The notes under the pieces: model-generated | Told to the model about the DNA's origin: nothing | The model's input: the letters and a program-made list of their open reading frames with translations, nothing else | The model's database searches: none | NCBI RefSeq assembly: GCF_003334315.1 | Contig: NZ_QOWR01000020.1 | Source: Escherichia coli | GTDB lineage: Bacteria > Pseudomonadota > Gammaproteobacteria > Enterobacterales > Enterobacteriaceae | DNA: 64,000 nt | Direction: 5' to 3' (one strand) | In this document: one piece after another, positions 1,057-61,224 of the stretch | Position numbering within the stretch: position 1 is the first letter of the stretch | Layout: each line of letters starts with the position of its first letter | Position numbers and translations under genes: made by a program

Positions 1057-1139
1057 TAGGCCTGATAAGACGCTATCAGCGTCGCATCAGGCATCCTGCT
1101 CAAATGCCGGATGCGGCGTAAACGCCTTATCCTGCCTAC
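1057..1139. repeat. REP (repetitive extragenic palindrome) pair
   Basis: Inverted copies of the GCCGGATGCGGCGTAAACGCCTTATC / GTAGGCCTGATAAGACGC REP consensus in the yiiM-cpxA intergenic region. Confidence 0.75.
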
Positions 1140-1150
1140 AAATGCGGAGT

Positions 1151-2524
1151 TTAACTCCGCTTATACAGCGGCAACCAAATCACCAGCCGTAAACCGCCCA
1201 GCGGGCTGTCTTCTGCCTTCACCCAGCCACGATGCTGCTGAATGGCGGTTTCAACAATCGCCAGCCCCAATCCTGTACCGCCAGATTCACGATCGCGTGC
1301 TTCATCGGTCCGATAGAACGGACGGAAAATCTGTTCGCGATCTTCCGGGCTAACGCCAGGACCATCGTCGTCCACCGTAATGGTGATACCGTCTTTATCT
1401 ACCGCAAAGCCCACTTCAATCTTCGTATGGGAATAACGCAGAGCATTACGAACAATGTTTTCCAGCGCACTTTCCAGGGCGTTCGGATTGCCGTACAGCG
1501 GCCACGGCCCAGGCGGGAAGTTAACTGTCAACGACTTGCCCATTTGCTCGGCTTCGAACGCCGCGTTATCCAGCACTTCACTCCACAACTGATTGGCTTT
1601 GATGGTCTCGCTAACCAGCGCGTTTTTTTGCTGATTACGTGACATCACCAACAGGTCGTTGATCATGCTGTCCAGACGTTGCGCTTCGGTTTCAATACGC
1701 TCCAGTTCCTTGCTTTCACCGCTACGACGGCGCAGTAACGCCGTACCCAGTTGCAGACGCGTCAGCGGGGTGCGCAGCTCGTGAGAGATATCAGAAAGCA
1801 GACGCTGCTGGGAGGTCATCATGCGCTCCAGCGCGGTGACCATCTGGTTAAAACTGGCACCTGCGGCAAGGAATTCCTGTGGCCCCGCTTCCAGTTCCGG
1901 GTGCTGGCGTAAGTTTCCCTGGGCAACTTCATCGGCAGCGTTTTTCAGCTTACGCGCCGGTTTTGCCAGACTCCAGGCCAACCACAACAGCAGCGGCGTA
2001 CTGACCAACATGGTGACAATCAGCAGTAATAGCGGGCGGTCAAACAGTAAGTTAATGAAATCGGATTGAGAACTGCTGGCCGGACGAATCAGATAAAGTT
2101 GGTAATTATCTTCGCCATCACGCACGGAGAACGGACCGACCAGTTCCACGCGGCCATACTTTTTCTTCTGCGGATGATCGGCGTTATCGGCCTGACCAAT
2201 AAAGTTACGAATGATCTGCATTTCGCTGCGTTCAGCGCCGATCACGCGGCCTTCGGTGGTCACCAATAATAAACGCTGTCCTGGCGGTGCCCACTTATCA
2301 ATCGCCCGAAACAGACGCCGCCACCACATTAAATCGTTGGGCGGATCGTTCGCCAGCTCCGCTTCGACATGCTGCTCAATCATCAGCCCCTGACGCTGTT
2401 CGCTATCCAGAAGCTCGGTCATCTGGCGTGAATCGAGCTTGGGTAACATCAAAACCAACATCAACACCAGCGCCAGCGTCAGCCAGAAGATGGCGAAGAT
2501 GCGCGCGGTTAAGCTGCCTATCAT
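1151..2524 (-). CDS. cpxA: Envelope-stress sensor histidine kinase CpxA (457 aa)
   Basis: Full ORF; N-terminal membrane segments; H-box ISHELRTPLTRL; start overlaps cpxR stop (ATGA). Confidence 0.97.
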   Translation of the reverse strand: MIGSLTARIFAIFWLTLALVLMLVLMLPKLDSRQMTELLDSEQRQGLMIEQHVEAELANDPPNDLMWWRRLFRAIDKWAPPGQRLLLVTTEGRVIGAERSEMQIIRNFIGQADNADHPQKKKYGRVELVGPFSVRDGEDNYQLYLIRPASSSQSDFINLLFDRPLLLLIVTMLVSTPLLLWLAWSLAKPARKLKNAADEVAQGNLRQHPELEAGPQEFLAAGASFNQMVTALERMMTSQQRLLSDISHELRTPLTRLQLGTALLRRRSGESKELERIETEAQRLDSMINDLLVMSRNQQKNALVSETIKANQLWSEVLDNAAFEAEQMGKSLTVNFPPGPWPLYGNPNALESALENIVRNALRYSHTKIEVGFAVDKDGITITVDDDGPGVSPEDREQIFRPFYRTDEARDRESGGTGLGLAIVETAIQQHRGWVKAEDSPLGGLRLVIWLPLYKRS

Positions 2525-3219
2525 GAAGCAGAAACCATCAGATAGCCGCGACCACGCAAGGTTTTAAACCACGGGTGACCATCTTTACGATCCGGCAGTT
2601 TACGACGCAGGTTGGAAATGTGCATATCGATAGCGCGGTCGAAAGGCGTCAGGCGTTTGCCCAGCACTTCCTGGCTTAAATGTTCACGGGAAACCACCTG
2701 ACCCAGATGCTGTGCCAGCAAATAGAGCAGGGTAAACTCAGTGCCGGTTAACTCCAGCGTTTGCCCGTCGAAGCTGGCTTCCTGACGGCCTGGATTCAGC
2801 ACTAAGGCATCAACTTCCAGTGTCGGTGAACCGTTGTCGTTGTTTTGCTGTTGCTCGCTCCAGTGCGAACGGCGCAGGATCGCGCGAATACGTGCCACCA
2901 GCTCACGATCATTAAATGGTTTCGGGAGATAGTCATCTGCGCCCAGCTCAAGGCCGAGAACGCGATCAAGTTCACTGCCGCGCGCCGTCAACATAATGAC
3001 AGGCGTCTGGTGTGTCTGGCGAAGTGCTTTTAATGTGTCGATACCATTTTTCTTCGGCATCATTACGTCAAGCAAAAGTAAATCAATGCTGTCGTCCAGA
3101 AGATCAAGCGCCTGTTCCCCATCGTGGGCAACAATCACGTTGAAGCCTTCCATCTCGAGCAGCTCCTTTAATAGGGAAGTCAGCTCTCGGTCATCATCAA
3201 CTAACAGGATTTTATTCAT
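2521..3219 (-). CDS. cpxR: OmpR-family response regulator CpxR (232 aa)
   Basis: Receiver domain (MNKILLVDDD...LLLLDVMMP) plus winged-helix C-terminus; 4-bp overlap with cpxA. Confidence 0.97.
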   Translation of the reverse strand: MNKILLVDDDRELTSLLKELLEMEGFNVIVAHDGEQALDLLDDSIDLLLLDVMMPKKNGIDTLKALRQTHQTPVIMLTARGSELDRVLGLELGADDYLPKPFNDRELVARIRAILRRSHWSEQQQNNDNGSPTLEVDALVLNPGRQEASFDGQTLELTGTEFTLLYLLAQHLGQVVSREHLSQEVLGKRLTPFDRAIDMHISNLRRKLPDRKDGHPWFKTLRGRGYLMVSAS

Positions 3220-3274
3220 TGTTTAAATACCTCCGAGGCAGAAATTACGTCATCAGACGTCGCTAATCCATGAC

Positions 3275-3289
3275 TTTACGTTGTTTTAC
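3275..3289. promoter_or_regulatory. CpxR box (GTAAA-N5-GTAAA) in the divergent cpxRA/cpxP control region
   Basis: Plus strand TTTACGTTGTTTTAC is the reverse complement of GTAAAACAACGTAAA, a perfect direct-repeat CpxR consensus; a further GTAAA lies at 3320-3324. Confidence 0.6.
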
Positions 3290-3368
3290 ACCCCCTGACG
3301 CATGTTTGCAGCCTGAATCGTAAACTCTCTATCGTTGAATCGCGACAGAAAGATTTTGGGAGCAAATG

Positions 3369-3869
3369 ATGCGCATAGTTACCGCTGCCGTCATGGCCTC
3401 AACGCTGGCAGTCAGTTCATTAAGCCACGCTGCTGAAGTCGGTTCAGGCGATAACTGGCATCCGGGTGAAGAACTTACGCAGCGCAGTACGCAGAGCCAT
3501 ATGTTCGACGGCATAAGTTTAACCGAACATCAGCGTCAGCAGATGCGAGATCTTATGCAACAGGCCCGGCACGAACAGCCTCCTGTTAATGTTAGCGAAC
3601 TGGAGACAATGCATCGCCTTGTCACCGCAGAAAATTTTGATGAAAACGCTGTGCGCGCACAGGCAGAAAAAATGGCGAATGAGCAAATTGCTCGTCAGGT
3701 TGAGATGGCAAAAGTCCGCAACCAAATGTATCGCCTGTTAACGCCGGAGCAGCAAGCGGTTTTAAACGAGAAACATCAACAACGAATGGAGCAGTTGCGC
3801 GACGTGACGCAATGGCAAAAAAGTTCATCGTTGAAGCTATTGAGTAGTAGCAACTCACGTTCCCAGTAG
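3369..3869 (+). CDS. cpxP: Periplasmic Cpx pathway inhibitor/adaptor CpxP (166 aa)
   Basis: ORF-track 3366..3869 has tandem ATGs; second ATG gives [21 protein letters not shown] signal peptide; [12 protein letters not shown] helical motifs. Confidence 0.95.
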
Positions 3870-3877
3870 TAAACCCT

Positions 3878-3936
3878 GTTTTCCTTGCCATAGACACCAT
3901 CCCTGTCTTCCCCCACATGATGTGGGGGTTTTTTTT
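3878..3936 (+). ncRNA. cpxQ: CpxQ-like 3'-UTR-derived sRNA including the cpxP intrinsic terminator
   Basis: About 60 nt after the cpxP stop ending in hairpin CCCCCACAT/GATGTGGGGG (3910-3928) plus T8; the processed cpxP 3' end is the described CpxQ sRNA. Exact 5' end is not determinable from sequence. Confidence 0.5.
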
Positions 3937-4017
3937 ATCCTCAATTTGCCTGCTGCTTAATGCATTGCAGATGATTTGCTTCCGTTATACTAGCGTCAGT
4001 TGATAGCGGGAGTATTT

Positions 4018-6119: not shown

Positions 6120-6217
6120 GCCTGATGCGCTTCGCTTATCAGGCCTACGTGAATTCTGCAATTTATTGAATTTACAAATTTTTGTAGGCCGGATAAGGCG
6201 TTCGCGCCGCATCCGGC
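6120..6217. repeat. REP pair (BIME-like)
   Basis: GCCTGATGCGCTTCGCTTATCAGGCCTAC and GTAGGCCGGATAAGGCGTTCGCGCCGCATCCGGC in inverted arrangement downstream of pfkA. Confidence 0.75.
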
Positions 6218-55863: not shown

Positions 55864-55980
55864 AAAAAAAAGCGGATCCTGGAGATCCGCAAAAGTTCAC
55901 GTTGGCTTTAGTTATTCGAGTTGAGAAACTCTCGAAACGGGCAGTGACTTCAAGGGTTAAAAGAGGTGCCGCTCCGTTTC
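55864..55980 (-). ncRNA. oxyS: Oxidative-stress small RNA OxyS (~109 nt)
   Basis: Minus strand reads GAAACGGAGCGGCACCTCTTTTAACCCTTGAAGTCACTGCCCGTTTCGAGAGTTTCTCAACTCGAATAACTAAAGCCAACGTGAACTTTTGCGGATCTCCAGGATCCGCTTTTTTTT, matching OxyS as I recall it, including its terminator hairpin; divergent from oxyR. Confidence 0.88.
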
Positions 55981-60856: not shown

Positions 60857-60984
60857 GATGTATCCTGAAAAATTAAAGTACGCGGCGATTGTAGGGATTG
60901 CTCATCAGATGTCCAGATCTTGATGAATTCCTATTTGTGAGCTACGTCTGGACAGTAACTTGTTACAACCTGTAGCATCCACTT

Positions 60985-61224
60985 GCCGGTCCTGTGAGTT
61001 AATAGGGAATCCAGTGCGAATCTGGAGCTGACGCGCAGCGGTAAGGAAAGGTGCGATGATTGCGTTATGCGGACACTGCCATTCGGTGGGAAGTCATCAT
61101 CTCTTAGTATCTTAGATACCCCTCCAAGCCCGAAGACCTGCCGGCCAACGTCGCATCTGGTTCTCATCATCGCGTAATATTGATGAAACCTGCGGCATCC
61201 TTCTTCTATTGTGGATGCTTTACA
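60985..61224 (+). promoter_or_regulatory. btuB 5' leader carrying the adenosylcobalamin riboswitch
   Basis: Leader GCCGGTCCTGTGAGTTAATAGGGAATCCAGTGCGAATCTGGAGCTGACGCGCAGCGGTAAGGAAAGGTGCG... with B12-box-like AAGCCCGAAGACCTGCCGGCC at ~61124-61146; ends at the btuB ATG. Confidence 0.85.

Follow-up and report, generated by a model that had tools for sequence, protein, structure and literature searches.

Background

RNase E, assisted by Hfq, cuts the small RNA CpxQ out of the cpxP mRNA; the RNA has a 5' monophosphate and is no longer made when the cleavage site is mutated (PMC9438474, bioRxiv 10.1101/271551). The RNase E motif is RN|WUU, in which the U at +2 is critical (PMC5222698), and the role of the U8 tract as the Hfq-binding tail is likewise known from the literature (PMC9438474, PMC5222698). 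CpxQ possesses two conserved seed regions (bioRxiv 10.1101/271551). Repression by CpxQ is described for nhaB, skp, agp, ydjN and fimA as well as for cfa (PMC4817254, PMC9438474 and bioRxiv 10.1101/271551 among the sources).

In Erwinia amylovora, a 74-nt, Hfq-dependent and Northern-validated RNA named Hrs1 has been described between cpxP and fieF (Zeng and Sundin 2014). The source paper gives Hrs1 the orientation of both flanking genes (>>>) and assigns it a Rho-independent terminator.

The region between these two genes also figures in the literature on P2-type phages, where the attachment site of WPhi is given as MG1655 coordinate 4104392 and P2-type sites are called intergenic. In the E. 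coli W genome paper, the site is named "cpxP-fieF", and other P2-type elements are placed at "rybB ncRNA" and "cyaR RNA".

Results and discussion

CpxQ and the cpx locus

[quoted passage not shown] CpxQ at the tail of cpxP is already known and is annotated in the K-12 reference genome: in MG1655 the ncRNA cpxQ (b4716) is located at 4106330-4106387, and it begins 10 nt past the last base of cpxP. The spacing from the cpxP stop is identical in the window. The features of the locus are as follows.

1151-2524, minus strand: cpxA, the Cpx sensor kinase (457-aa ORF; arrangement as annotated in K-12)
2521-3219, minus strand: cpxR, the response regulator (232-aa ORF; annotated in matching E. coli genomes)
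3275-3289, minus strand: consensus box of CpxR-P, GTAAAACAACGTAAA, within the promoter region that separates the divergent cpxR and cpxP (perfect match)
3369-3869, plus strand: cpxP CDS, belonging to the putative parental mRNA of CpxQ (ORF of 166 aa plus TAG; 501 nt in the K-12 annotation)
3870-3878, plus strand: 9-nt spacer UAAACCCUG between the cpxP stop and the CpxQ 5' end (5' end from the K-12 annotation)
3879-3936, plus strand: very probable CpxQ sRNA, 58 nt (57/58 identical to K-12 cpxQ b4716; 100% to Salmonella; nt 1-31 invariant in 81 sequences)
3879-3893, plus strand: seed region 1, CpxQ nt 1-15, UUUUCCUUGCCAUAG (predicted helices with nhaB, skp, agp and cfa)
3896-3910, plus strand: second conserved region, CpxQ nt 18-32, ACCAUCCCUGUCUUC (predicted secondary helices with skp, cfa and agp)
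3910-3928, plus strand: stem-loop of an intrinsic terminator, 8 bp, loop UGA (terminator scan, fold and covariation)
3920, plus strand: loop polymorphism, A in the window and C in K-12; the only difference from K-12 cpxQ
3929-3936, plus strand: U8 tail, 3' end of the transcript (T8 in the sequence; 6 of the 8 positions invariant)
3893-3939, no strand assigned: 47-nt attB core of WPhi-type P2 phages, consisting of CpxQ nt 15-58 and ATC (exact match to the WPhi attP)
From 4019, plus strand: fieF, downstream of cpxP and followed by pfkA

The 5' end of CpxQ is taken from the K-12 annotation, while the limits of the seed regions come from the pairing computation of this analysis. The last U lies 67 nt from the cpxP stop, and the annotated RNA is 58 nt long. 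The ORF list also contains an alternative in-frame ATG for cpxP, located 3 nt upstream of the start. A 98-aa ORF running antisense to the end of cpxP and CpxQ (3622-3918, minus strand) is unsupported as a gene and is probably due to chance.

With a 901-bp query around the cpx locus, matches were obtained in all 5426 of the 5426 complete E. coli genomes, and cpxP is annotated in every one of them; this segment of the window is the E. coli cpx locus. The sequence GTAAA-N5-GTAAA, which we take to be the consensus of the CpxR box, has a single perfect match within the 64 kb, where 0.06 would be expected by chance.

Most of what the initial annotation had claimed for the locus is confirmed by these comparisons. 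It had interpreted the tail of cpxP as CpxQ, an interpretation that agrees with the alignment to K-12 cpxQ and with the complete identity to Salmonella over 3872-3939, and it had placed the cpxP stop (TAG) at 3867-3869, where the ORF listing has it. It gave the extent of the element as 3878-3936, of which the end is correct and the start is one base too early, the annotated RNA beginning at 3879. The perfect CpxR box that it reported is indeed the only one in the window, with the correction that it lies on the minus strand. As for the Cpx regulatory module that it described, both cpxA and cpxR adjoin the box.

The difference between the window and K-12 at position 3920 is common among E. coli. 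With an 86-nt query, 4105 of 5427 E. coli records are identical to the window, which makes A3920 the majority allele; 1321 records, K-12 included, differ from the window at one position. The Salmonella contigs carry A3920 as well, and those of S. enterica subsp. diarizonae and arizonae also match CpxQ at 100%.

Terminator and RNA fold

The terminator scan places the two arms of the stem at 3910-3917 and 3921-3928, with G-C in six of the eight pairs and the loop at 3918-3920. The palindrome itself consists of 9 + 9 bases around one central base. A loop of a single nucleotide is impossible, and the stem that can form has 8 bp, one fewer than the palindrome suggests, and closes on a loop of 3 nt. 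The 9-bp G/C-rich hairpin with U8 described in the initial annotation is thus retained as to the hairpin and the U8 tract, but not as to the length of the stem.

For the 68-nt tail the folding energy is -17.4 kcal/mol (z = -2.45), a value that 2 of 200 shuffled sequences reach. The stem is also seen in the covariation between species: there are 32 double-change cells, compared with 8.7 in shuffles (0 of 500 shuffles as high), 98.7% of the cells are paired, and all slid registers collapse. For example, the pair 3915:3923 occurs as AU (50), UA (23) and CG (5). A second, small hairpin (3892-3896 / 3904-3908), overlapping the second conserved region, is predicted by the fold. All five of its pairs are invariant, so that covariation is uninformative about it.

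The features of an Hfq-binding module, namely a Rho-independent terminator and a long U tail, are present, and from the literature Hfq would be expected to bind here.

Conservation across species

A search with the E. coli CpxP protein returned only near-identical Escherichia proteins, and the single protein was therefore used for a genome scan. With CpxP as the sole bait and one genome per species, 80 Enterobacteriaceae loci were collected, in which the identity of CpxP ranges from 71 to 100%. The 31-nt CpxQ motif is present in exactly one copy in each of the 80 loci. In the 81 sequences compared, CpxQ nt 1-31 (3879-3909) is invariant at all 31 positions (mean majority frequency 1.00). The corresponding figures are 4 of 47 positions (0.70) for the last 47 nt of cpxP and 0 of 18 positions (0.55) for the 18 nt past the U-tract. 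The 5' part of CpxQ has a single indel, one additional U in the run of U at its start, found in 17 of the 81 sequences.

These values bear on the possibility that the tail does no more than end the cpxP transcript, as a passive terminator and 3' UTR, and lacks a role as an RNA in its own right. A terminator is certainly present, and a 3' UTR and a 3'-derived sRNA are indistinguishable from sequence alone. A passive spacer, however, would drift like the DNA past the U-tract, whereas the 31 nt before the stem are invariant next to a CDS whose protein identity goes down to 71%. Moreover, genetic and biochemical work in the literature demonstrates that the RNA is functional (PMC4817254, PMC9438474, bioRxiv 10.1101/271551). 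The passive terminator is, therefore, very unlikely as an explanation of the tail.

The conservation of CpxQ as a functional RNA may be followed further, in more distant cpxP loci that were found via 50%-cluster representatives of CpxP. Where CpxP is 48-62% identical, with the same cpxAR/cpxP/fieF synteny, the CpxQ motif is essentially intact. Where CpxP is 42-48% identical, one conserved CpxQ region only is present, which is seed 1 in locus L096 (1704-1800) and the second region in locus L097 (1728-1815); of these loci, one retains just UCCUUGCCAUAGA and the other just AUCCCUGUCUUCCCC. No recognisable CpxQ was found in locus L098, in which CpxP is 36% identical. The split of the two halves fits the two conserved seed regions that have been published (bioRxiv 10.1101/271551), and suggests that the two seeds of CpxQ evolve as separate modules.

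Biogenesis

The 5' end of CpxQ is U-rich, in keeping with published CpxQ, and the sequence CUG|UUU at 3878/3879 fits the RNase E motif at W, U+2 and U+3; the R at -2 is absent, the base there being U, not G or A. The CCCUG that precedes the 5' end of CpxQ is near-invariant (79 of 81 sequences). A promoter scan of the plus strand from 3000 to 3900 found no sigma-70-like site. The CpxR box is the sole promoter signal upstream of CpxQ, and control by the cpxP promoter is predicted from the sequence.

Some small RNAs from the 3' ends of genes, such as MicL, have internal promoters, and CpxQ might in the same manner be a separate gene, with its own promoter within the end of cpxP and no processing. 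The result of the promoter scan argues against such a gene, and the lack of a promoter-like site just upstream of CpxQ is consistent with processing rather than separate transcription. In addition, the literature reports RNase E processing, a 5' monophosphate and cleavage-site mutants without CpxQ (PMC9438474, bioRxiv 10.1101/271551). An independent promoter is accordingly given very little probability.

If CpxQ is released by processing, the following pathway may be proposed. Envelope stress would activate CpxA and CpxR, and CpxR-P at the box would promote the transcription of cpxP, the transcript stopping at the intrinsic terminator (3910-3936). RNase E, together with Hfq, would cut between G3878 and U3879, leaving a stable 58-nt RNA with a 5' monophosphate. 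The single-stranded 5' part of this RNA (mainly nt 1-15, with the second region at about nt 18-32) would pair with mRNAs such as those of nhaB, skp, agp and cfa, and the pairing would block translation or lead to decay or termination of the target, so that the synthesis of membrane and periplasmic proteins would fall. For this strain, we infer RNase E cleavage, Hfq binding and target regulation from the identity with the CpxQ RNAs that have been studied; stress induction is likewise presumed, from the literature or by inference.

Pairing with target mRNAs

Compact ungapped helices were searched between CpxQ nt 1-36 and target regions of K-12, with 500 shuffled CpxQ sequences for comparison. 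This search replaced RNAduplex, which without a loop limit gave long-bulged artefacts and poor z-scores. The shuffle counts below are the numbers of shuffled CpxQ sequences (of 500) whose longest helix is equal to or longer than that observed.

nhaB SD, -15..-5, with CpxQ nt 1-11: 11 bp; 6/500 shuffles as long
nhaB CDS, +299..+310, with CpxQ nt 7-18: 12 bp; 6/500 shuffles as long
skp SD, -16..-6, with CpxQ nt 3-13: 11 bp; 17/500 shuffles as long, not individually significant
agp, +26..+37, with CpxQ nt 4-15: 12 bp; 1/500 shuffles as long
cfa 5' UTR, -134..-127 (+79..+86), with CpxQ nt 4-11: 8 bp, weak; 102/500 shuffles as long, not individually significant

The paired sites agree with those in the literature: the helix in the nhaB CDS coincides with the second site reported about 300 nt into the CDS, besides that in the nhaB TIR, and the cfa helix falls within the stem-loop reported at +78..+97 of the cfa 5' UTR.

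A phage attachment site in cpxQ

On a small circular replicon, a stretch of 45 nt that matches exactly adjoins a P2-type integrase. The attP of WPhi, located between ogr and int, matches the window at 47 of 47 positions (3893-3939), and in the phage collection 62 records, of the P2 family, have the core sequence. When the window, the WPhi attP and both ends of the prophage KC618326 are aligned, a textbook set of attB, attP, attL and attR is obtained. The analysis shows that WPhi-type P2 phages have their chromosomal attachment site in the 3' 44 nt of cpxQ, and this in several genera. In the window the attB is unoccupied, because fieF follows directly.

The site is occupied in a considerable number of genomes. 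The attL junction is found in 794 of the 5426 complete E. coli genomes (14.6%, or ~15%), the WPhi-type integrase in 790 E. coli genomes, and the attR junction in 787. Among the species representatives, 6 of 80 have a WPhi-type integrase right after cpxQ in the place of fieF (an Escherichia sp., four Kosakonia and one MAG).

The loop polymorphism may be used to locate the strand exchange. The phage core carries the A3920 allele, and of the 787 attR junctions 153 have the host-type C at the loop position. Queries for an attL with C gave no match; they tested two arm types and, through a 28-nt word requirement, were blind to A-allele junctions, so that their result is supportive but not conclusive. 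In E. coli M217, attL (L099 691-800) has A and attR (L100 680-800) has C; from this single-genome check, the strand exchange is placed 5' of 3920, within 3893-3919. In that stretch, the 7-nt CCATCCC at 3897-3903, bounded by the inverted GACA/TGTC, is the predicted region of exchange. An exchange 5' of the terminator loop means that the cpxQ of a lysogen consists of the host 5' part and a phage-derived terminator. In about 1 in 7 E. coli genomes, the junctions show the working cpxQ to be such a chimera of a host seed and a phage-supplied terminator. A phage-derived CpxQ terminator in ~15% of the sequenced E. coli is of relevance when the Cpx responses of different strains are compared.

Of the conserved bases, 47 are identical to the phage attP core, and the site is used in several other genera besides E. 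coli. It may therefore be asked if the conservation is due to the attB rather than to RNA function. The invariant block, however, begins 14 nt before the core (3879-3892) and includes the main seed, whereas inside the core both the stem of the terminator and the ATC at the end differ from species to species, from which it follows that hosts do not maintain the core as a whole. That 65 of the 80 loci are unoccupied and yet have an invariant nt 1-31 also suggests a cause other than the phage. Furthermore, there is no obvious reason for a host to preserve the entry site of a phage; more probably, it is the phage that targets DNA which is not free to change. Conservation on account of the attB is, for these reasons, held to be highly improbable, and function of the CpxQ RNA is the preferred explanation.

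A CpxQ mimic made by the phage was considered and rejected: the phage copy is without seed 1 (nt 1-14), and the core sits behind the terminator of ogr itself (L003 2400-2419), flanked by repeated TATGTGGAC Int arm-type motifs.

It is conceivable that the overlap of cpxQ and attB is biologically meaningful, in that the phage would exploit an unmutable segment of an sRNA, A3920 would have spread via repeated integration and excision, and lysogeny would alter the termination or stability of CpxQ or the expression of fieF. This suggestion is tentative and, in our estimate, rather doubtful.

With an offset of 1977 bp between U00096.2 and NC_000913.3, which we assume here, the coordinate 4104392 given for the WPhi site falls inside cpxQ. 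No link between the WPhi site and CpxQ was found in the searchable papers.

Several further observations concern the DNA next to cpxQ. The WPhi-type prophage KC618326 (E. coli O157:H43 T22), located at cpxQ, carries the cytolethal distending toxin genes cdtABC as cargo (L004 6058-8200). In Salmonella Infantis PM57, the fieF-cpxP primers are 31,676 bp apart, which is not so in DR006 (bioRxiv 10.64898/2026.03.17.712176); the distance in PM57 agrees with an insertion of P2 size into the Salmonella counterpart of the site, on which the authors of the preprint do not comment. Seven of the species representatives (L020, L024, L025, L028, L029, L042 and L049) have neither fieF nor a WPhi-type integrase within ~1.45 kb past cpxQ, and two of them, L049 and L020, have phage-arm-like sequence directly after the core. 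Small lipoprotein-like ORFs are present downstream of cpxQ in loci of the Citrobacter freundii group. Other insertions just downstream of cpxQ are possible in the loci without fieF or a WPhi-type integrase.

Rfam and Hrs1

At the gathering thresholds of Rfam, no family is found at the CpxQ locus, and there is no CpxQ family in Rfam. When the threshold is relaxed, Hrs1 (RF02628) comes first: it matches 3864-3936 on the minus strand and scores 44.5 bits (E 3.5e-7), its gathering score being 56.4. Matches on the sense strand to NsiR1, RyhB, OmrA-B and others align only the generic terminator and are attributed to chance. The cpxP-fieF spacers of L089, L091, L092 and L093 are likewise matched antisense to cpxP by RF02628; scores in divergent spacers are 83.4, 74.7 and 64.6 bits, always in this orientation.

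The consensus of RF02628 opens with A7 followed by a hairpin. This is a terminator in reverse, and the family is therefore stored as the reverse complement. The absence of a sense-strand Rfam match at CpxQ is thus explained, the CpxQ family being missing and the homologous family misoriented. Hrs1 is the Erwinia orthologue of CpxQ.

The functional RNA might instead be sought on the other strand, given that RF02628 matches the minus strand here and scores above gathering, also antisense, in the divergent loci. This is the least probable reading of all, because the minus strand has no U-tract after the hairpin, the model is a reversed terminator, the source paper has Hrs1 on the strand of cpxP and fieF with a Rho-independent terminator, and the K-12 annotation of cpxQ is on the plus strand.

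The consequence of CpxQ, on the plus strand, being absent from Rfam is a gap in annotation: in E. coli and Salmonella, where CpxQ scores below the gathering value of RF02628, annotation based on Rfam overlooks it, and with RF02628 reverse-complemented, Erwinia-like genomes would receive a label on the wrong strand.

Elsewhere in the window, the OxyS sRNA (139.5 bits), a cobalamin riboswitch (87 bits), an L31 ribosomal-protein leader and a ClpQY (hslVU) promoter element score above gathering in Rfam, their coordinates as a set being 55871-55980 (minus), 60970-61159 (plus), 24540-24592 (plus) and 19871-19928 (minus). There are also matches to naRNA4 (CssrE) and ES036 (CssrF) at 1059-1136 (minus), 6141-6182 (minus) and 25572-25613 (plus). 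The naRNA4 alignment consists of paired palindromic units that resemble REP elements, intergenic after cpxA and pfkA.

Comparison with known systems

The RNA of the window resembles the CpxQ of K-12 and Salmonella in locus, strand, length, distance from the stop, terminator and seed-target complementarity. It differs from K-12 CpxQ in the loop base, where K-12 has C and the window has A3920, which is the commoner base in E. coli.

Hrs1 is similar in sequence across the whole of CpxQ, in its position between cpxP and fieF, and in its strand. In contrast to CpxQ, it was reported as specific to Erwinia, in a source paper that makes no link to CpxQ, and its Rfam model is reversed.

SroC, SdhX, NarS and the 3'-processed forms of ArcZ and RprA are comparable to CpxQ, as the literature describes it, in their release by RNase E and Hfq, in a U-rich site near the stop codon, and in the use of the terminator of the mRNA (PMC9438474, PMC5222698). 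Their parental mRNAs and their targets are other than those of CpxQ. CpxQ, unlike these sRNAs, has a monocistronic mRNA as its source and serves the stress pathway in which its protein partner also acts.

Among attachment sites, those of the P2 family at rybB and cyaR, and that of phage 186-type at tRNA genes, share with the WPhi site a phage core that repeats the 3' end of a small RNA gene, so that the gene is restored on integration. With the WPhi site, cpxQ joins rybB and cyaR as an sRNA gene that is targeted by P2-family phages. Unlike the sites at rybB and cyaR, however, that of WPhi has been described in the searchable papers only as 'cpxP-fieF', by a coordinate, or as 'between genes'.
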